Origin: Candidatus Avimonas merdigallinarum
GTDB lineage: Bacteria > Bacillota > Clostridia > Oscillospirales > Acutalibacteraceae
NCBI GenBank assembly: GCA_904377855.1
Contig: CAJFGS010000001.1
Span: 42,538-106,537, forward strand
Reading direction: 5' to 3'
DNA: 64,000 nt
In this document: piece by piece, positions 45,543 through 62,902 of the stretch
How the letters are laid out: each line of letters opens with the position of its first letter
Numbering within the stretch: the first letter of the stretch is position 1
Program-made: the position numbers and the translations under genes
Notes under the pieces: generated by a model
Seen by the model: the letters and a program-made list of their open reading frames with translations, nothing else
Databases searched by the model: none
Told to the model about the DNA's origin: nothing

Positions 45543-45808
45543 CGGGTAATTCCTCCTTTACACATTTTCCCAGCGGGCGTTTCCCGTTGGAATCTCCGAT
45601 TTTACGATAATGAAAAATATTATACCGCATTTTTTATAAAGTGCCAATGGGGAATGAGAAAAATTTGTGAAATTATTGCGGAACTCCCTTTCCAATTCTC
45701 TGTCCTTGTCAAGAGGAGACAGGGAGATTATAATAAATTATATTAAGACACGGACCGGGATACATATAAGCCGGCCGGACTCAATTTTTCGGAGAGGGGT
45801 AGGCGCCT

Positions 45809-47113
45809 GTGGCGGAACATCGGTCGGCGGATTGCGGGATTATCGGGGGCGGCGCGGCCGGGTTGGCGGCCGCGGCCTTCCTTTCCTGCTTGTCGGGAGG
45901 CACGGTCTCGTCGGTGATACTGGAAAAGGGGGTGCGGGTCGGCCGGAAGCTGCTGGCCACCGGGAACGGCACCTGCAACCTGAGCAATATCCACGCGGCG
46001 CCCCCCTACTACCATGGGGCGGAGCCGGATTTTGCCCGGCCGGCGCTGTCCGCCTTCCCGCCAGAAGAAGCCACGGCCTTCTTCACCTCGATCGGGGTGG
46101 AATGCCATCAGCGGGAGGACGGGCGGATCTACCCGCTGTGCGCCCAGGCAGGCGCAGTGCTCGACTGCCTGCGGCTGACCCTCGCCGCGGCAGGGGTACG
46201 GGAGGAATGCGGCGCGCCGGTGACCGCGATCCACCCCGGACGGGACGGCTTCCGGATTGAACGGGAAGGGGCGGAGCCTTGGTATGTCCGGCGGGTGCTG
46301 GTCTGTACAGGGGGTGCCGCCTCCCCCTCCCTGGGCGGGGGGACGGACGGCTACGGGCTGCTGGGGGCGCTTGGGCATCCCCGCACCCCGCTCTTTCCCT
46401 CCATTGTCCAGGTGAAAACCGACGTCGCCTTTGTCAAGGCGGTCAAGGGGATCCGGGCCGACGCGGAACTCCGGTTTGAACGGGACGGGCGGCCTGTCGC
46501 GCGGGAAACGGGGGAAATCCTCTTCACCGAATACGGCCTGTCGGGGCCGGCAGTGATGCAGATCTCCCGCTGCGTGGCCGATTGGGAACGGCGGCGGGAG
46601 GGGGAGATGGCAGCGGTGCTCAACATCCTGCCCGACCTGGACAAGAAGGAACTGGCGGCTTCCCTGCGCCGGCGGGCGGCTCTCCCGGGCCGGACGGCGG
46701 GGGATCTGCTGACCGGCTTGGTCCATAAGCGGCTGGGGCAGACCGTGCTGCGCGCCGCCGGGTATACGGACTTGAACGCGCCGGTTTCCGCCCTGCGGGA
46801 GGCCGATCTCCGCCGGATCGCGGCGGGGCTGACAGCGTGGCGGATCCCGGTGCAGGGCACGCAGGGGATGGGCGGCGCCCAGGTGACTGCCGGCGGGGTG
46901 GAAACTGCCGGGTTCGATCCGGTGACGATGGAATCCCGCAAGGTTCCCGGCCTGTACGCGGCGGGCGAGGTGCTGGATATCGACGGGGACTGCGGCGGCT
47001 ATAATCTGCAGTGGGCGTGGGCGTCCGCCCATGCCGCTGCCTCTGCAATGGTCCGTTCCCTGTCTGCCGGCGGGGCGCCGGGAGGACGAAAAAAAGGAGG
47101 AAACGGGCGATGA
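45809..47113 (+). CDS. NAD(P)/FAD-dependent oxidoreductase, BaiN/HI0933 family
   Basis: GIIGGGAAGL dinucleotide fold and GRKLLATGNGTCNLSN family hallmark; GTG start after GGAGAGGGG. Confidence 0.8.
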   Translation: MAEHRSADCGIIGGGAAGLAAAAFLSCLSGGTVSSVILEKGVRVGRKLLATGNGTCNLSNIHAAPPYYHGAEPDFARPALSAFPPEEATAFFTSIGVECHQREDGRIYPLCAQAGAVLDCLRLTLAAAGVREECGAPVTAIHPGRDGFRIEREGAEPWYVRRVLVCTGGAASPSLGGGTDGYGLLGALGHPRTPLFPSIVQVKTDVAFVKAVKGIRADAELRFERDGRPVARETGEILFTEYGLSGPAVMQISRCVADWERRREGEMAAVLNILPDLDKKELAASLRRRAALPGRTAGDLLTGLVHKRLGQTVLRAAGYTDLNAPVSALREADLRRIAAGLTAWRIPVQGTQGMGGAQVTAGGVETAGFDPVTMESRKVPGLYAAGEVLDIDGDCGGYNLQWAWASAHAAASAMVRSLSAGGAPGGRKKGGNGR

Positions 47114-48732
47114 TCCGTATCAGCAATCTATCCCTTCCGCTTTCGTACACCGACGGGGATCTGCGGGCAGCGGTCTGCCGCCTGCTGTGGATCCGGGCGG
47201 AAGAGATCCGTTCCCTCCGCCGGGCGAAGGTATCGGTGGACGCGCGACACAAGGACCGGCTGTGCTTTGTCGCGGCGGTGGACGTTTCCCTCACGGGGGA
47301 CGAAGAGGCGGCGATCCGCCGCTGCAAAAGCGGGCAGGCAAAGCTTCTGGACGAATCCCCGTACGTCCCGCCCGTCCTCTCCCCCGCCCTCCAATGCGCC
47401 CGGCGGCCAGTGGTAGTGGGAAGCGGGCCGGCCGGCCTTTTCGCCGCGCTGGTGCTGGCCCGGGCGGGGCTGCGGCCGCTCCTGCTGGAACGGGGGCGGG
47501 CTGTGGAGGAGCGGCAGGCGGATGTGGGTCGCTTCCGCCAAACCGGCGTGCTGGACCCCTCTTCCAACGTACAGTTTGGGGAAGGGGGCGCGGGCACCTT
47601 TTCGGACGGGAAGCTGAACACCGGCATCAAAAACCCCCGCTGCCGCTTTGTGCTGGAGCAGCTGGCGGCAGCCGGCGCGCCGGAACGCATCCTGTGGCAG
47701 GCCAAACCCCACGTCGGCACTGATAAGCTGCGGGAAGCGGTGCGGGGGTTGCGGGCGGCCATCCTCGCTGCCGGCGGGGAGGTGCGTTTTTCCCACTGCG
47801 TGCGGGATTTCCTTGTGGAGCGGGGGGCGCTGCGCGGCCTGCTTGTCCACACGCCGGACGGTCCGGTGGAAATCGAAGCGGATCGGGCTGTCCTTGCCAT
47901 CGGGCACAGCGCGCGGGACACCATGGAGGCGCTCTACCGGCGGGGATTGGCGATGGAACCCAAGCCTTTCGCGGTCGGGGTACGCATCGAGCATCCCCGC
48001 GCGATGATTGATAAAAGCCAGTACGGGCCCTTCGCCGGCCATCCCGCGCTGGGGGCGGCCGATTATAAGCTGGCGGTGCGTCCGCGTGGCGGACGGGGGG
48101 TCTATACCTTCTGCATGTGCCCGGGCGGGGTGGTGATCGCCGCCGCCTCCGAAGAAGGGGGCGTGGTGGTCAACGGGATGAGCGAATTTGCGCGGGACGC
48201 GGAAAATTCCAACAGCGCCCTGCTGGTCGGCGTAGGGCCGGAGGACTTCTGCCGGGCCGGGGAGGCGGGGAACCCCCTGGCCGGCATCGCCTTCCAGCGT
48301 CGGCTGGAGCAGGCGGCCTACCGCCTGGGCGGGGGCGGATACCGCGCGCCCGCCCAGCTGGCGGGGGATTTCCTCGCGGGGAGGGCTTCGACCGGATTCG
48401 GAGATGTAAAGCCATCCTACTTGCCAGGAGTAGTCCCCGCCGATCTGCGGGAATGCCTGCCCGGTTTCGTCGCGGATTCCCTGCGGGCGGCCCTCCCAAT
48501 GATGGGAAGGCAGATCGCCGGATTCGACCGCCCGGATGCCGTGCTCACCGGGGTGGAGTCCCGCAGTTCCTCGCCGGTGCGGATCCTGCGGGACGAACGG
48601 GCGCAGGCTACTATCGCCGGGATTTTCCCCTGCGGGGAAGGCGCGGGCTATGCCGGCGGCATTGTGTCCGCAGCGGTAGACGGGGTAGTATGCGCGGAAA
48701 AGCTGATGGCATCGCTGGAATCAGGCGGATAA
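47110..48732 (+). CDS. FAD-dependent protein (COG2509-type dehydrogenase)
   Basis: Start MIRISNLSL after AAAGGAGG, ATGA overlap with upstream stop; VVVGSGPAGLFAAL Rossmann motif. Confidence 0.75.
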   Translation: MIRISNLSLPLSYTDGDLRAAVCRLLWIRAEEIRSLRRAKVSVDARHKDRLCFVAAVDVSLTGDEEAAIRRCKSGQAKLLDESPYVPPVLSPALQCARRPVVVGSGPAGLFAALVLARAGLRPLLLERGRAVEERQADVGRFRQTGVLDPSSNVQFGEGGAGTFSDGKLNTGIKNPRCRFVLEQLAAAGAPERILWQAKPHVGTDKLREAVRGLRAAILAAGGEVRFSHCVRDFLVERGALRGLLVHTPDGPVEIEADRAVLAIGHSARDTMEALYRRGLAMEPKPFAVGVRIEHPRAMIDKSQYGPFAGHPALGAADYKLAVRPRGGRGVYTFCMCPGGVVIAAASEEGGVVVNGMSEFARDAENSNSALLVGVGPEDFCRAGEAGNPLAGIAFQRRLEQAAYRLGGGGYRAPAQLAGDFLAGRASTGFGDVKPSYLPGVVPADLRECLPGFVADSLRAALPMMGRQIAGFDRPDAVLTGVESRSSSPVRILRDERAQATIAGIFPCGEGAGYAGGIVSAAVDGVVCAEKLMASLESGG

Positions 48733-49990: not shown

Positions 49991-50019
49991 TTGCATGAAT
50001 GGAAAAAATAGAGTATACT
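49991..50019 (+). promoter_or_regulatory. Sigma-A promoter TTGCAT-17-TATACT for the hydrogenase-like sensory cluster
   Basis: TTGCATgaatggaaaaaatagagTATACT, about 90 nt upstream of the first DRTGG gene. Confidence 0.6.
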
Positions 50020-50110
50020 ACCGATAAGCGCAGGATTCCCTGGGCGGACAGCCAGAAAAACGGGAGGCGGGCAAACGCCACGCCTCGGTAAAGGCCGGGA
50101 GGTATGGCAA

Positions 50111-50455
50111 ATGACGATTGCCGATGTACGGGAAATTTTGCAGGCGGAAGTTATCACAGGGGAAGAGCATCTGGAAGCCGAAGTACACAACGCCTGCGGC
50201 AGCGACATGATGAGCGACGTGCTGGCCTTTGTAAAGGATCAGTCCGTGCTGCTGACCGGGCTGGTCAATCCCCAGGTCGTCCGGACAGCGGATATGATGG
50301 ACATGGTCTGCATCGTGTTTGTCCGCGGGAAGGAACCGGGAGAGGAAATTGTGGAACTGGCCGCCGATCGGGGGATTGTGCTCATGAAAACCCCTCTGCG
50401 GATGTTTACGGCCTGCGGCCTGCTGTATGAGAAGGGGCTGCGGGGCGGCAACTGA
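50111..50455 (+). CDS. DRTGG-domain protein (paralog 1)
   Basis: 114 aa; DRTGG-like core (GSDMMSDVLAF...SVLLTGLVNPQVVRTADMMDM...VFVRG...AADRGIVLMKT); GGGAGGT RBS. Confidence 0.7.
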   Translation: MTIADVREILQAEVITGEEHLEAEVHNACGSDMMSDVLAFVKDQSVLLTGLVNPQVVRTADMMDMVCIVFVRGKEPGEEIVELAADRGIVLMKTPLRMFTACGLLYEKGLRGGN

Positions 50456-50483
50456 ATCGAACGGGACCGAAGAGGGTGGAAAA

Positions 50484-50903
50484 ATGAATATGAAGTTGCA
50501 TTACGACGTGCCTGGCGACGATTTTACCCGCGCGGGGGAAGCCTCCAGCGCAGTCAAGCGCAAGCTCAAGCAGATGGGCTTTAACCCGGACGTGATCCGC
50601 CGGGTCGCTATCGCCATGTATGAAGGCGAAATCAACATGGTGATCCACGCCGGCGGCGGGGAGGCGGATGTGGAAATCCTCCCCGACCGGGTGACGGCGG
50701 TGCTGACCGACCACGGCCCGGGCATCCCCGACGTGGAGCAGGCGATGCAGGAAGGATGGTCCACCGCCCCGGATAATGTGCGTTCCCTCGGCTTCGGAGC
50801 CGGGATGGGGCTGCCGAACATAAAAAAATATTCCGATACGCTGGAAATACACACCAAGGTGGGCGAAGGAACCGTCCTGACAATTACGGTGCTGGTGAAA
50901 TAG
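50484..50903 (+). CDS. GHKL-type Ser/Thr kinase (RsbW/SpoIIAB-like anti-sigma-factor-type ATPase)
   Basis: N-box EGEINMVIHAGGG, G1 DHGPGIP, G2 GFGAGMGL; start MNMKLHYD. Confidence 0.75.
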   Translation: MNMKLHYDVPGDDFTRAGEASSAVKRKLKQMGFNPDVIRRVAIAMYEGEINMVIHAGGGEADVEILPDRVTAVLTDHGPGIPDVEQAMQEGWSTAPDNVRSLGFGAGMGLPNIKKYSDTLEIHTKVGEGTVLTITVLVK

Positions 50904-51041
50904 CGGCTGAAAATGCGAGCGCGCCAGGCCGATGGTTCCAGCCATACCTGATATCATCATATCATCGTTTGACGGGACATCAAAAGAAAAAACGGGCGGC
51001 GTTTGTCCGCCTCTTTTTTCAATCCGGGAGGCGAAACGGTT

Positions 51042-52385
51042 GTGGAAAACAAGGACCGCTTTTTCCATTCGGTCACGCTGGATAAGGATTTGTGCGTAGG
51101 CTGCACCAACTGCATCAAGCGCTGCCCGACGCAGGCGATCCGTGTGCGGGACGGGAAGGCGCAGATTATTTCCGAGCGGTGTATCGACTGCGGGGAATGC
51201 GTGCGGGTCTGCCCGCACCATGCCAAAAAAGCCCGGCATGACAGCCTGGCCATGCTGAAGGATTTTTCCTATCGGATCGCGCTGCCCGCCCCTGCCCTTT
51301 ATGGGCAGTTCAACCATCTGGACGATATTGACTTTGTTCTCAACGGGCTGCGCGCCATGGGTTTTGACGATGTGTTCGAGGTGTCGCGCGGGGCGGAAAT
51401 CATCTCCGACGCGACCCGGCAGCTCCTTATGGACGGGAAACTGAAAAAGCCGGTAATCTCCTCTGCCTGCCCGGCAGTGGTGCGGTTAATCCGGGTGCGC
51501 TTCCCCGACTTGTGCGAGCATGTCCTGCCGCTGAAAGCGCCAATGGAAGTGGCGGCGATGCTGGCGCGGAAGGCCGCGGTGGAAAAAACCGGGCTGAAGC
51601 CGGAGGAAATCGGCATTTTCTTCCTCTCCCCCTGCGCGGCGAAGGTGACCGACGTGAAGGTACCCATCGGGGTAGAGCGCTCCAATGTGGACGGGGTGCT
51701 GGCCATCAGCGACATCTATCCCCGCCTGGTCAGTAAGATGAACAAGCTGGAAACGCTCGAACCCCTCGCCCATTCCGGGATTATCGGGGTGGGATGGTCG
51801 TCGATCGGCGGGGAAGCGGCCGGCCTACTCAATGAAAACCATCTGGCCGCGGACGGCATCGACAACGTGATCAAGGTGCTGGAGGAACTGGAGGACGAAA
51901 AGCTGCAGGAGCTGGATTTCATCGAATTAAACGCCTGCGCGGGGGGGTGCGTGGGCGGCATTTTCACAGCAGAAAACGGGTATGTTGCCCGGGCACGCAT
52001 CCAGCGGCTGCGGAAATACCTGCCGGTCTCCTGTTCCCGGCTGGAGGATGCGGGGAGCATGGATAGCCTGGAATGGACCCAGCCGCTGGAGTTTGCGCCG
52101 GTGATGAAGCTGGCAGAAAACGTGGAAGACGCCATGCGGCTGATGACGGAAATCGATGAAATCAGCGAACGGCTCCCTCAGCTGGACTGCGGTTCCTGCG
52201 GCGCGCCGACCTGCCGTGCGCTGGCGGAGGACATTGTGCGGGGCCTGGCCAGGGAAAACGACTGCATCTTCCGCATGCGGCAGCAGATCCAGGATATCGC
52301 CAATCAACTCTCCAGCATCGAAAACGGGCCCCCAGGCGAAGGATCGGTCCGCCGGACGGGGCCCGAAAACACAACCGGCGGCTGA
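51042..52385 (+). CDS. [FeFe]-hydrogenase-like protein, putative sensory type (2x[4Fe-4S] ferredoxin N-terminus, H-cluster domain with SACP variant, C-terminal Cx2Cx4Cx16C)
   Basis: CVGCTNCIKRCP and CIDCGECVRVCP ferredoxin motifs. H-domain motifs are L1 SSACP (canonical TSCCP), L2 SPCAAKxxD and L3 ELNACAGGCVGG. C-terminal CGSCGAPTC-x16-C. No PAS domain. Start uncertain (GTG 51042 after GGGAGG; the ORF track begins at TTG 51003). Confidence 0.75.
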   Translation: MENKDRFFHSVTLDKDLCVGCTNCIKRCPTQAIRVRDGKAQIISERCIDCGECVRVCPHHAKKARHDSLAMLKDFSYRIALPAPALYGQFNHLDDIDFVLNGLRAMGFDDVFEVSRGAEIISDATRQLLMDGKLKKPVISSACPAVVRLIRVRFPDLCEHVLPLKAPMEVAAMLARKAAVEKTGLKPEEIGIFFLSPCAAKVTDVKVPIGVERSNVDGVLAISDIYPRLVSKMNKLETLEPLAHSGIIGVGWSSIGGEAAGLLNENHLAADGIDNVIKVLEELEDEKLQELDFIELNACAGGCVGGIFTAENGYVARARIQRLRKYLPVSCSRLEDAGSMDSLEWTQPLEFAPVMKLAENVEDAMRLMTEIDEISERLPQLDCGSCGAPTCRALAEDIVRGLARENDCIFRMRQQIQDIANQLSSIENGPPGEGSVRRTGPENTTGG

Positions 52386-52456
52386 GCCTCTTTAAAAAGG
52401 CTGCGCCGGGAAAACGGGCATGACGAAAAAATGGGCATGCTGAAGGGGGAAAGCCA

Positions 52457-52798
52457 ATGACGGTGGAAGAGATGGCGCAGGCCATGCAGCTGGAAACCCT
52501 GGTGGAAGGAGACGGCGCCCGTGCGGTAACCGGCGGGTACTGCGGGGATCTGCTCAGCTGGGTGATGGGCCGGGCAAAAGAAGGGGACGCGTGGATCACC
52601 GTGATGGGCAATGTAAACGCTGTCGCGGTGGCTGTCCTTGCGGACACAGCCTGCATCCTGCTGGCAGAGGATTCCCCGCTGGACAACGACGCGCGGGAAC
52701 GGGCGGCCGTGCAGAAAGTAACCATTCTGCGCAGCGGGAAGGATGCCTATACCCTCGCGCTGGAACTGGGAAAGCTGCTTGAAAAACCACAGGGGTAA
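52457..52798 (+). CDS. DRTGG-domain protein (paralog 2)
   Basis: 113 aa; same domain architecture as the 50111 gene; GGGGGAAAG RBS. Confidence 0.7.
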   Translation: MTVEEMAQAMQLETLVEGDGARAVTGGYCGDLLSWVMGRAKEGDAWITVMGNVNAVAVAVLADTACILLAEDSPLDNDARERAAVQKVTILRSGKDAYTLALELGKLLEKPQG

Positions 52799-52838
52799 AA
52801 ACAGCCCCGTTTGGAATAATCCAGGAGGTTAATGAAGG

Positions 52839-53174
52839 ATGAACGACAGGAACGAAAAGGAAACGAAGCAACAGGGCGGGATCGTCTGGACCGAAGATCT
52901 CATTCGGGAGATGGCCCGCCATGGCTCCCTTCCCTCCCGGGAATGCACCAAGGAGGAGGAAGAGCAGTTCGTCGCGCTTTTGGACGAAGGAAAGCCGCTG
53001 CCGGAGACGGTCTATCGGAACCGGTCCGGCACACGTTTCTATAAAGTGGAAATCCCCGATCCCGAAACGCTCAAGCTCCGGCTGGAATCCCGCCGGACCC
53101 ACTACTTTCAGCTGGGCGTCTGGGCGTTGTGGGCCATCGCCATCCTGCTGGTGGCCCTGATTGTGAGAATGTAA
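52839..53174 (+). CDS. Small tail-anchored membrane protein (hypothetical)
   Basis: 111 aa; CCAGGAGG RBS 10 nt upstream; single C-terminal TM helix (LGVWALWAIAILLVALIV). Confidence 0.45.
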   Translation: MNDRNEKETKQQGGIVWTEDLIREMARHGSLPSRECTKEEEEQFVALLDEGKPLPETVYRNRSGTRFYKVEIPDPETLKLRLESRRTHYFQLGVWALWAIAILLVALIVRM

Positions 53175-53211
53175 GGCTGGCGGGATGCCGCCGGCATGGG
53201 AAAGGAGCGCG

Positions 53212-53955
53212 ATGCGGATGAAAATCCGGTATGACCTGCATATCCATTCCTGCCTGTCTCCCTGCGGCGATGCGGATATGACGCCGAACAATATCGTCAA
53301 TATGGCGCTGTTGGCCGGGCTGGAACTCATCGCGCTGACCGACCATAATTCCTGCAAAAACTGCCCCGCCTTCCTCCGCGCTGCGGAACGGGCGGGGCTT
53401 GTTGCCGTACCGGGAATGGAACTTTGCACGGCGGAGGAGTGCCATATTATCTGCCTATTCCCTGCGCTGGACGCGGCCATGGCGTTCGACCGCTTTATAG
53501 AGGCCGCGCTGCCGCCGGTGGAAAACCGGCCGGATATTTTCGGCGAACAGTGGATCCTGGACGAGGAGGACGCACTGACCGGCTCCTTCCCTCTTCTGCT
53601 GGCCACCGCTTCCTCCCTCAGCGTAGACGAAGTGGTCGGGACGGTGCGAGGATACGGCGGCGCCGCTTTCCCGGCCCACATCGATCGTCCTTCTTACAGC
53701 GTGACCGCGGCGCTCGGCGACATTCCCCCGGTGGGCTTCCGGGCAATTGAGGTGACGGCTGCCGGAGATGTGGCGGCGCTCGCCGCGCGGTATCCGGAGA
53801 TGCGCGGAAAGCCGGTTATATGGAATTCGGACGCCCATTATCTCGAACAGATCCAGGAAGCCGGGCCGTGGCTGGACCTGCCGGAAAACACCCCTGCCGC
53901 CCTAATTGCGGCGCTGAACGGGGACCTCCCCGCCGCCTGGGGCCGTGGGGAATAA
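53212..53955 (+). CDS. PHP-domain phosphoesterase
   Basis: HIHS...TDHNS metal-binding motifs of the PHP (polymerase/histidinol phosphatase) fold; ~248 aa. Confidence 0.8.
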   Translation: MRMKIRYDLHIHSCLSPCGDADMTPNNIVNMALLAGLELIALTDHNSCKNCPAFLRAAERAGLVAVPGMELCTAEECHIICLFPALDAAMAFDRFIEAALPPVENRPDIFGEQWILDEEDALTGSFPLLLATASSLSVDEVVGTVRGYGGAAFPAHIDRPSYSVTAALGDIPPVGFRAIEVTAAGDVAALAARYPEMRGKPVIWNSDAHYLEQIQEAGPWLDLPENTPAALIAALNGDLPAAWGRGE

Positions 53956-61939: not shown

Positions 61940-62902
61940 ATGACAGCCAGCGACAGCCGCAAGGTGGTTTTAATCGGCACCGGCATGGTGGGGATGAGTT
62001 ACGCATACGCCCTGCTGAACCAGAACGCCTGCGACGAGCTTGTATTGATTGACCTCGACGCCGAGCGCGCCATGGGCGAAGCGATGGACCTCAACCACGG
62101 ATTGGCCTTTTCCTCCTCCAGCATGAAGATTTATGCGGGCAAATACGCCGACTGCGCCAGCGCGGATATTGTCGTCATCTGCGCCGGCGTCGCGCAGAAG
62201 CCGGGCGAATCCCGGCTGGATCTGCTGCAGCGCAACGCCGCTGTGTTCCGTTCGATCATCGGCCCAGTGACCGAGTCCGGCTTCAACGGCATCTTCCTGG
62301 TGGCGACCAATCCCGTGGATATCATGGCCCGGATTACCTGCACCCTGTCCGGCTTCAACCCGCGCCGGGTGCTCGGCAGCGGCACTGCGCTGGACACCGC
62401 CCGCCTGCGGTATCTGCTGGGCGATTACTTCTCGGTCGATCCCCGCAACATGCACGCCTACGTCATCGGCGAACATGGCGACAGCGAATTCGTCCCCTGG
62501 TCGCAGGCGATGATGGCCACCAAGCCCATTCTCACCCTTTGCGAGGAAACCGGGATCTGCCAATATGCCGACCTGGAAAACATCGCCGCGGAGGTGCGGG
62601 GAGCCGCCCAGAAAATTATCAAGGCAAAGCGGGCGACCTATTACGGCATCGGGATGGCCCTGGTCCGGATTACCAAAGCGATTTTCGGCAACGAAAACAG
62701 CGTGCTGACCGTTTCGGCGATGCTCCGGGGAGAATATGGAGACAGCGGGGAAAACGGCGTATTTGTCGGCGTCCCCTGCATCGTCAACCGCCGCGGGGTG
62801 CGCAAGGTGCTCACCTTATCCCTCTCCGACGAGGAAGCCCGGCGTTTTCACGCGTCCTGCCAAACCCTGCAGGATTCGTACAAGGAGCTGAACCTGCAAT
62901 AA
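61940..62902 (+). CDS. ldh: L-lactate dehydrogenase
   Basis: VVLIGTGMVGMSYAY NAD fold; catalytic region GEHGDS; 320 aa. Confidence 0.9.
   Translation: MTASDSRKVVLIGTGMVGMSYAYALLNQNACDELVLIDLDAERAMGEAMDLNHGLAFSSSSMKIYAGKYADCASADIVVICAGVAQKPGESRLDLLQRNAAVFRSIIGPVTESGFNGIFLVATNPVDIMARITCTLSGFNPRRVLGSGTALDTARLRYLLGDYFSVDPRNMHAYVIGEHGDSEFVPWSQAMMATKPILTLCEETGICQYADLENIAAEVRGAAQKIIKAKRATYYGIGMALVRITKAIFGNENSVLTVSAMLRGEYGDSGENGVFVGVPCIVNRRGVRKVLTLSLSDEEARRFHASCQTLQDSYKELNLQ

Follow-up and report, generated by a model that had tools for sequence, protein, structure and literature searches.

The window analysed here is a stretch of 64,000 nucleotides (nt) from Candidatus Avimonas merdigallinarum, placed by GTDB in Bacillota; Clostridia; Oscillospirales; Acutalibacteraceae (assembly GCA_904377855.1, contig CAJFGS010000001.1, positions 42,538-106,537 of the forward strand). 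It encodes a putative sensory [FeFe] hydrogenase, referred to as HydS, together with two small DRTGG proteins (DRTGG1 and DRTGG2), a lone GHKL-type ATPase (GHKL) and a PHP phosphoesterase (PHP). The five genes recur in the same arrangement in related genomes far beyond chance, and the four proteins that accompany the hydrogenase are good candidates, judged by comparison of sequences, for the signalling partners of Group D HydS. An H2-responsive sensor complex around HydS, working through a kinase/phosphoesterase switch, is the reading we arrive at; its mechanism is inferred, and we hold it to be evenly balanced between right and wrong.

Six co-directional open reading frames (ORFs) occupy positions 50111-53955, where the preliminary description of this DNA had placed them. 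These ORFs and two elements between or before them are as follows (lengths in amino acids, aa).

49991-50019, + strand: promoter-like site, TTGCAT-17 nt-TATACT, ~90 nt 5' of the first gene
50111-50455, + strand: DRTGG paralog 1 ("type 1"), 114 aa, Pfam DRTGG (PF07085) 29.5 bits
50484-50903, + strand: SpoIIAB/RsbW-like GHKL ATPase, 139 aa, HATPase_c_2 45.2 bits
50993-51021, + strand: terminator-like hairpin, inside the 138-nt spacer before the HydS gene
51042-52385, + strand: HydS [FeFe] hydrogenase, 447 aa, GTG start; Fer4 x2, Fe_hyd_lg_C 110.9 bits
52457-52798, + strand: DRTGG paralog 2 ("type 2"), 113 aa, Pfam DRTGG 26.3 bits
52839-53174, + strand: tail-anchored 111-aa ORF, matching no family in Pfam or NCBIfam
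53212-53955, + strand: PHP phosphoesterase, 245-247 aa, PHP 39.3 and PHP_C 23 bits

The domains named earlier (DRTGG twice, HATPase, [FeFe] hydrogenase and PHP) were recovered in the Pfam profile search of the six ORFs, all quoted matches exceeding the gathering score; the NCBIfam search returned matches below threshold only. For five of the six proteins, the GTG start at 51042 included, public assemblies of uncultured Bacillota contain an independently called gene with an identical product. The public calls start the PHP gene at 53218, two codons later (P0312, 245 aa).

HydS was found to have two N-terminal [4Fe-4S] clusters, an H-domain and a C-terminal Cx2Cx4Cx16C motif. Pfam gave no PAS domain and a C-terminal PF04060 FeS match of 49 bits, so the earlier description of a PAS-less "sensory-type" hydrogenase is confirmed. 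The hallmarks published for the M2e or Group D hydrogenases are an N-terminal two-cluster domain, a C-terminal four-Cys motif and no PAS, together with the absence of C299 and the replacement of M353 by a hydroxyl residue (PMC8163306, PMC13104023). Every one of these sequence hallmarks is present, which shows HydS to be a putative sensory [FeFe] hydrogenase of Group D (M2e, TamHydS-type); the assignment is one of hallmark residues and architecture.

The N-terminal cluster Cys are C18, C21, C24, C28, C47, C50, C53 and C57, seven of the eight being invariant among 21 relatives. The H-cluster Cys (C143, C198, C299 and C303) align with the TSCCP, MPC and CxxxC motifs of solved hydrogenases, and both these and the C-terminal C383, C386, C391 and C408 were invariant in the same 21 diverse relatives (31-59% identity). 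The C-terminal motif was located at residues 383-408 by regular expression, and 39 residues remain after its last Cys. In the alignment to solved hydrogenases, the proton-relay Cys (C299 of CpI) is replaced by Ala142 (motif SSACP), M353 of CpI by Ser196 (motif LSPC) and M497 of CpI by Asn (motif ELNAC). Residues of TamHydS that are more than 75% conserved in Group D, namely R30, R32, K35, K58, D378, E392, D393 and D403 (PMC13104023), reappear at a constant offset of +4 as R34, R36, K39, K62, D382, E396, D397 and D407.

At E <= 1e-30 the HydS family comprises 607 clusters at 50% identity, and the C-terminal motif occurs in at least 596 stretches of species-representative genomes, some of them perhaps Group C. 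Papers that use HydDB (PMC8542988, PMC6163223, PMC11406978) describe "[FeFe] group C1" enzymes as monomeric and putatively H2-sensing, their gene directly following one with a "histidine kinase domain". The GHKL-HydS gene pair fits this account and, going by the descriptions, group C1 and Group D are probably largely the same. Some orthologs of HydS carry misleading names in public annotation, such as "RnfB subunit", "ferredoxin" and "4Fe-4S binding protein" (e.g. P0045, P0057). One representative match of 4122 aa (P0249) has 14 separate stretches matching the H-domain, which would make it a giant repeat protein unless assembly or gene calling is at fault.

In itself the hydrogenase is unremarkable within a known and biochemically studied group, and earlier work already remarks on a GHKL gene linked to it. 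The biochemistry, which had been taken to be uncharacterised, has been studied in vitro for Group D/M2e with TamHydS (PMC8163306, PMC13104023). That enzyme interconverts H+ and H2 reversibly, with low rates and high H2 affinity, and it is encoded upstream of a bifurcating hydrogenase with a flanking "histidine kinase-like ATPase" (PMC8163306); an H2-induced change in its secondary structure has also been reported. HydS of the window shares with TamHydS the architecture, the missing C299, the Ser in place of M353 and the conserved charged residues near the clusters. In both, a GHKL-type gene lies directly upstream, and relatives often adjoin a bifurcating HydABC operon; in the window, unlike the TamHydS locus, no HydABC is adjacent. 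The TamHydS papers give no account of two DRTGG paralogs, of PHP, of gene fusions or of a SpoIIAB-like GHKL (PMC8163306, PMC13104023).

The Group C sensors (TmHydS, HydS of R. albus, HfsB) have the same N-terminal clusters, H-domain and C-terminal four-Cys cluster, likewise lack the proton-relay Cys, are suspected H2 sensors affecting hydrogenase or ethanol balance, and are genetically linked to Ser/Thr phospho-signalling proteins. They differ in having a fused PAS domain and in their linkage to Ser/Thr kinases and to phosphatases of the PP2C type (HfsC). Here PAS is lacking, DRTGG domains stand in its place, whether flanking or fused, and a PHP enzyme is the phosphoesterase. Group C and Group D sensors coexist in one genome, that of T. 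mathranii. A further parallel is HoxBC with HoxJ/HoxA of Ralstonia eutropha, in which a low-activity hydrogenase serves as H2 sensor with an ATP-dependent kinase (PMC5707799). HoxBC belongs to an unrelated enzyme family, however, and HoxJ is a PAS-containing histidine kinase with a response regulator; here there is neither PAS nor regulator.

Conservation of the locus was examined in the 80 best loci from species-representative genomes (HydS identity 56-86%), which span Oscillospiraceae, Acutalibacteraceae, Ruminococcus, Lachnospiraceae, Clostridium and others, and whose ORFs were searched with the six window proteins. The order DRTGG1-GHKL-HydS-DRTGG2-PHP was kept in 75 loci, and the exceptions are contig ends or cases in which PHP is displaced or absent (L021, L022). 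GHKL was directly upstream of HydS in 79 of the 80 loci, DRTGG2 followed HydS in 78, and PHP followed DRTGG2 in 76. The preliminary description had counted the tail-anchored 111-aa protein as a sixth member of the unit; only five of the six genes are conserved. In relatives, 4-nt overlaps are typical for DRTGG1/GHKL and for DRTGG2/PHP, which suggests two translationally coupled pairs flanking HydS. Median identities to the window proteins, across the 77 shared genomes, were 67% for DRTGG1, 68% for GHKL, 59% for HydS, 51% for DRTGG2 and 49% for PHP. The values for DRTGG1 and GHKL lie above that for HydS, which points to stronger constraint on the two upstream proteins than on the hydrogenase.

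Gene content persists in loci whose HydS is only 31-37% identical. L083 has DRTGG-DRTGG-GHKL-HydS; L085 has DRTGG-DRTGG-PHP-HATPase_c_3-GHKL-HydS. In L084 the order is DRTGG, a CBS+GHKL fusion, HydS, DRTGG, DRTGG, PHP, NuoE, HATPase, ferredoxin (Fd), NuoF and a protein like formate dehydrogenase (Fdh), and in L089 it is DRTGG-GHKL-HydS-DRTGG-PHP-HATPase_c_3-NuoE-Fd-NuoF-HydA. L081, L091 and L092 have the core trio or pair only. The maintenance of content while order changes is strong evidence for functional coupling.

Natural fusions were sought by scanning against Pfam ten of 150 representatives that are longer than the usual ~410-460 aa. P0162 is a fusion of GHKL and HydS, P0165 and P0204 are fusions of a type-1 DRTGG domain with HydS, and in P0129, P0136, P0245, P0224 and P0261 a type-2 DRTGG domain follows HydS at the C-terminus. 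The side on which the domain is fused agrees with gene order. The P0129 fusion was seen twice independently, in a genome from NCBI and on a metagenome contig of the Joint Genome Institute (JGI), where it replaces the separate DRTGG2 gene. These fusions argue for physical contact of GHKL and both DRTGG proteins with HydS, and those joining HydS to a DRTGG domain argue that the C-terminal DRTGG holds the position of PAS in Group C sensors. With the 80 loci and the shuffled distant loci, they bear out the earlier proposal that the genes form one conserved functional unit.

The opposite reading, that the six genes are chance neighbours or belong to separate, unrelated transcripts, could draw on several features of the window itself. 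The genes had been described as tightly spaced behind one consensus promoter. The spacing is not uniformly tight: GHKL and HydS are separated by 138 nt (50904-51041), where relatives usually have an apparent ORF-to-ORF spacer of about 20-40 nt. Within this gap, at 50993-51021, is a terminator-like hairpin consisting of an A-run, a GC stem (GGGCGG/CCGCC) and a T-run, which the terminator scan scores on both strands and which sits just 5' of the GGGAGG ribosome-binding site of the HydS gene; the stability of the whole folded spacer is ordinary (z -0.72). One transcript for all six genes therefore cannot be assumed, and the hairpin might act as an attenuator within the cluster, uncoupling DRTGG1 and GHKL from the later genes. 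As for the promoter, the site at 49991-50019 matches the -10 consensus in 5 of 6 positions and the -35 in only 3 of 6, and was missed by a consensus scan; it is plausibly a promoter-like site, of non-consensus type. The 111-aa ORF, for its part, has no relation to the other genes. Set against these features are the five-gene order in 75 of the 80 loci, the recurrence of the same content, shuffled, in distant loci and the gene fusions, and we regard chance proximity, which is contradicted for five of the six genes, as scarcely credible.

A search of Rfam with the leader and the spacer gave no credible match to an RNA element, and no Rex operator was found 5' of the window cluster within 3 mismatches. 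Boxes resembling Rex operators were observed 5' of the DRTGG1 start in several relatives, at ~97 nt in L006 and ~95 nt in L005, and also in L064, L061, L063, L032 and L071; the box in L006 is a perfect TTGTGAAATTTTTCACAA. With up to 3 mismatches, such boxes occur in 27 of 78 upstream regions of relatives versus ~6 expected from the loci-wide rate, a count that may be inflated by the AT-rich composition of intergenic DNA. In T. saccharolyticum a Rex site has been predicted 33 nt upstream of the PHP gene Tsac_1856 (PMC5886521).

GHKL consists of a lone ATP-binding domain of 139 aa, without a DHp/HisKA domain. Its best PDB sequence match was the anti-sigma F factor/Ser kinase SpoIIAB (1TIL, E 3e-5), and its best NCBIfam match was spoIIAB, at 48.6 bits for an equivalog cut-off of 135. 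The N-box (E..N..HA), G1 (D.GPGI) and G2 (LGFGAGMGLPN) were conserved in 80 orthologs, and the protein is a putative SpoIIAB-like Ser/Thr kinase. No response regulator was found near the window locus or recurrent in the 80 loci. A two-component histidine kinase does not agree with the ATP-binding-only protein and the lack of a nearby regulator, and for the same two reasons the label "histidine kinase(-linked)" is misleading.

Several features recall the SpoIIAB-SpoIIAA-SpoIIE and RsbW-RsbV-RsbU modules. GHKL is small, stands alone, belongs to the HATPase_c_2 type and has SpoIIAB as its closest relative of solved structure; its gene comes right after that of an alpha/beta protein of only ~115 aa, the two being translationally coupled in most relatives; and a dedicated hydrolase is encoded nearby. 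The differences are a DRTGG fold instead of STAS, PHP instead of PP2C, and a hydrogenase gene filling the "sigma" position. The earlier observation that no sigma factor is encoded nearby holds: none lies within +-8 kb, nor does any STAS or PP2C protein, and among the clustered ORFs of the 80 loci no transcription factor, sigma factor, STAS or PP2C is conserved. One distant relative (L084:481-1347) encodes a SpoIIAB-like GHKL with an N-terminal CBS domain, in a locus with three genes of DRTGG type. The nucleotide-regulated CBS-pyrophosphatases (CBS-PPase) likewise unite CBS with DRTGG domains, and the CBS-GHKL protein of L084 hints at an adenine-nucleotide input.

DRTGG1 and DRTGG2 are distinct and consistently placed paralogs, with 20% identity (phmmer E 2e-5). 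DRTGG1 has the loop S-D32-M-M-S35-D-V-L and the motif LLT49G; the corresponding motifs of DRTGG2 are G-D-L-L-S-W-V-M and W-I-T-V-M-G-N. In alignment A2, the residues D32, S35 and T49 (D-[LM]-[LMV]-S ... T) were invariant in all 15 free DRTGG domains linked to HydS; by inspection they are also kept in 7 fused DRTGG domains, and the generic DRTGG protein AF_1212 lacks D32 and S35. The model of DRTGG1 has a true DRTGG fold and a predicted local distance difference test score (pLDDT) of 89.6, and its sole low-confidence stretch, residues 31-40 (pLDDT 59), holds D32 and S35. On this combination of sequence and model, the D-x-x-S loop appears the strongest candidate, either as phospho-acceptor or as docking site. 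A role for DRTGG as a STAS-like antagonist was rejected, the structure search with the model showing an unrelated fold: no STAS structure was among its top 60 matches. Orthologs of DRTGG1 are misnamed in public annotation as "predicted transcriptional regulator" or "hypothetical protein" (P0455, P0477, P0511).

In PHP, the metal-ligand positions H10, H12, D44/H45, E70, H78, H156, D207 and H209 are invariant among relatives, and the AF2 model has a pLDDT of 94.7; phosphoester chemistry is a secure prediction from both. A Foldseek search with the model returned EndoQ first (E 1e-10, template modelling score TMq 0.65), followed by BAD_1165, TM0559, RNase AM and the pAp phosphatase Cv1693. The protein-tyrosine phosphatase YwqE/CpsB (3QY6) ranked 41 (E 0.05, TM 0.36), and a CpsB/YwqE-type protein phosphatase was rejected for this poor fold similarity. 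The preliminary description had put PHP in the place of the PP2C protein phosphatase; this is not borne out by the nearest folds, those of EndoQ, RNase AM and pAp phosphatases.

A kinase/phosphoesterase switch made of non-canonical parts is the most economical reading of these sequences. In this mechanism, the five proteins would assemble on HydS, with the DRTGG domains docked onto the Fe-S domains at either terminus, in the role that PAS has in Group C. Oxidation of H2 at the H-cluster would alter the redox state and conformation of HydS, and this change would gate GHKL, which would then transfer phosphate from ATP to the invariant Ser in the D-x-x-S loop of a DRTGG protein, or would switch partners. 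PHP would reset the switch by hydrolysing the DRTGG phosphoester. The output would be control of electron-bifurcating enzymes of the NuoE/NuoF type, in their HydABC or formate-dehydrogenase versions; it is named from gene neighbourhood only, and on that ground is the most likely output.

In its most specific form, the proposal is a new partner-switch in which a pair of DRTGG proteins serves as acceptor or docking site in place of STAS or PAS, an H2-gated GHKL acts on them, PHP is a phosphoprotein phosphatase, and HydABC or Fdh is controlled post-translationally. We offer this version tentatively and think it rather unlikely to hold in every part. If it is true, PHP would be the first Ser/Thr-phosphoprotein phosphatase of its branch of the superfamily, and the target would be bifurcating complexes, controlled after translation, rather than a sigma or transcription factor.

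Several observations weigh against a switch of this kind. GHKL scores far under the SpoIIAB/RsbW equivalog cut-offs. The DRTGG fold is unrelated to STAS, the D-x-x-S loop is unlike the phosphorylation motif of SpoIIAA/RsbV, and the loop may be a binding site rather than a phospho-acceptor. The nearest folds of PHP are phosphoesterases of nucleic acids and nucleotides, not protein phosphatases, and its substrate could, judging by the model, be a nucleotide. Some distant relatives carry only DRTGG-GHKL-HydS and no PHP, so that a reset phosphatase is not universal, and the terminator-like hairpin divides the first two genes of the window from the later ones. The fusion of GHKL to HydS is known from a single contig. 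TamHydS still turns over H2, which leaves room for a metabolic role (PMC8163306), and as to partners, the searchable literature mentions just the flanking "histidine kinase-like ATPase" (PMC8163306).

The same complex might work without protein phosphorylation, and this is the main rival to the kinase/phosphoesterase switch. GHKL would then be an ATP-dependent clamp or partner-switching binder, as SpoIIAB is on sigma F, the DRTGG proteins would be adaptors or ligand-binding modules, and PHP would degrade not a phosphoprotein but a nucleotide, be it pAp, a signalling nucleotide or an oligonucleotide. The closeness of the PHP model to EndoQ, BAD_1165, TM0559, RNase AM and Cv1693 is in keeping with this, as are the occurrence of DRTGG domains elsewhere in nucleotide-regulated proteins such as CBS-PPase and the CBS domain fused to GHKL in one relative (L084). 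Both DRTGG types can moreover be fused to HydS, and would so be fixed domains rather than diffusible phospho-carriers. Yet GHKL keeps all the ATP-binding and catalytic boxes of its Ser-kinase-type relatives, the invariant Ser lies in a flexible loop specific to the subfamily, and no nucleotide cyclase or synthetase is conserved nearby in the 80 loci. Overall we consider a mechanism free of phosphorylation unlikely.

Genes found beside the module in relatives bear on its output. Within 8 kb, the only recurrent neighbours were a NuoE-type [2Fe-2S] protein and a second HATPase of ~185 aa, each in 44 of the 80 loci. The neighbouring NuoF- and HydA-like genes form HydABC-type operons, which either follow the module on its own strand or precede it in divergent orientation, and this agrees with the report on TamHydS (PMC8163306) and suggests that the output is control of bifurcating enzymes. 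In two distant relatives (L081:655-5483 and L084:7359-9552) the module stands beside molybdopterin enzymes resembling formate dehydrogenase, with NuoE/NuoF- or NfnB-like partners, instead of a hydrogenase, and the sensor may thus serve several kinds of bifurcating enzymes. The second HATPase_c/HATPase_c_3 protein, of ~180-200 aa, is encoded in or beside the NuoE/NuoF/HydA (or Fdh-like) operons (L013:11283-11891, L084:4632-5168, L085:7008-7559, L086:3927-4493, L089:3024-3581); no description of a role for this second GHKL in bifurcating hydrogenase operons was found in the literature searched. The 64-kb window holds no second hydrogenase, NuoE, NuoF or second HATPase, and the genes flanking its locus are unrelated, with no bifurcating operon, transcription factor or sigma factor adjacent.

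These neighbours also allow a metabolic reading, in which HydS is a low-rate catalytic or accessory subunit of complexes of the HydABC or Fdh type, and GHKL, DRTGG and PHP regulate or assemble the enzyme instead of passing on an H2 signal. Operons of the NuoE/NuoF type adjoin the module in 44 of the 80 loci, and in L084 and L089 the module lies with them in one co-directional string. TamHydS interconverts H+ and H2 reversibly (PMC8163306), a metabolic role has been raised for "group C1" (PMC8542988), and sensory-type hydrogenases have been treated as the "T subunit" of Bfu complexes (PMC11406978). In contrast, the proton-relay Cys of HydS is replaced, and TamHydS has low rates and a high affinity for H2; no bifurcating genes lie within 8 kb in the window and in 36 of the 80 relatives; and HydS is invariably paired with proteins of signalling type, not with redox partners. 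A subunit role is improbable on these grounds, and a sensor role for HydS is preferred.

The locus had first been called hfs-like and compared with the hfsABCD genes of Thermoanaerobacterium, which were said to include a kinase-like and a PHP protein. The published content is different: HfsA is a partial hydrogenase-like protein, HfsB a PAS hydrogenase, HfsC a homolog of Ser phosphatases and HfsD a ferredoxin-linked hydrogenase (PMC11837493), and hfsABCD has no PHP, DRTGG or lone GHKL (PMC11837493). No part specific to hfs (PAS hydrogenase, PP2C, second hydrogenase) was found in the 64-kb window. The hfsB gene of T. mathranii has been deleted experimentally (PMC5707799), and the same organism carries the PAS-less TamHydS (PMC8163306), so that a PAS-containing hfsB and a PAS-less system do occur in one genome. 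In T. saccharolyticum the "PHP domain protein" Tsac_1856 is listed apart from hfs (Tsac_1550) (PMC5886521). What the two systems have in common is a non-prototypical [FeFe] hydrogenase with phospho-signalling proteins and a suspected control of fermentation balance. Membership in hfs is ruled out by the published gene content and by the coexistence of both systems in T. mathranii, and that the locus is a variant of hfsABCD, as first proposed, is very improbable.

The tail-anchored 111-aa ORF, once taken as part of the cluster, falls outside the conserved set. It looks a real gene: its GC content by codon position is gene-like (0.61/0.38/0.77), an AGGAGG motif lies upstream, and residues 91-109 form a hydrophobic C-terminal segment (mean Kyte-Doolittle 2.45). 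It has been called on 29 contigs, and its 90% cluster has 2 members. Neither phmmer on 80 related loci nor tblastn on 85 found a homolog. The DRTGG2-PHP junction, normally a 4-nt overlap, has become a hot spot for insertions in the clade nearest the window; the slot holds a tRNA-editing (YbaK-like) gene in L004:9606-10076 and ~500 nt without a clear ORF in L001:4092-4628 and L003:9595-10100. With no homologs and a variable slot, the ORF was rejected as a module member, and it is a lineage-specific insertion, a passenger outside the conserved module.

A lactate dehydrogenase gene (ldh) had been pointed out near the locus. The gene is real (61940-62902), and the functional link was rejected: unrelated genes on both strands lie in between, including those for a CCA-adding enzyme, DUF1848, a DNA-alkylation-repair protein and TelA, and ldh is not a recurrent neighbour of the module in the 80 loci. 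Elsewhere in the window, the region 45743-48500 is very GC-rich (0.70 over 46-48 kb), and long ORFs overlap one another across several frames of both strands. Family support there was obtained only for HI0933-like and FAD-dependent proteins on the + strand, and mechanical ORF lists are unreliable in this region.

A full-text literature search for DRTGG together with hydrogenase gave nothing relevant within its open-access scope. Nor was any description of the module, meaning the two DRTGG paralogs, PHP, the SpoIIAB-like GHKL, the fusions and the depth of conservation, found in the searchable open-access literature, subscription-only papers being outside this scope. How PAS-less sensors transduce their signal was posed as a question by Land et al. 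2020 (PMC8163306), and the native complexes and interaction partners of Group D were noted as a knowledge gap by Schumann et al. 2026 (PMC13104023). The comparative evidence names four candidate partners of HydS and one candidate loop for modification or docking, and adds fusions that argue for direct contact, so that the question of Group D signalling becomes directly testable. If confirmed, a role in this system would be the first cellular one for stand-alone DRTGG proteins, and the "histidine kinase-linked" label would need correcting. Among gut and rumen Clostridia the module is widespread, often beside bifurcating hydrogenases, and an understanding of it touches on the way fermenting bacteria adjust their output of H2, ethanol, lactate and acetate to H2 partial pressure, with relevance to rumen methane, gut ecology and engineered ethanologens.

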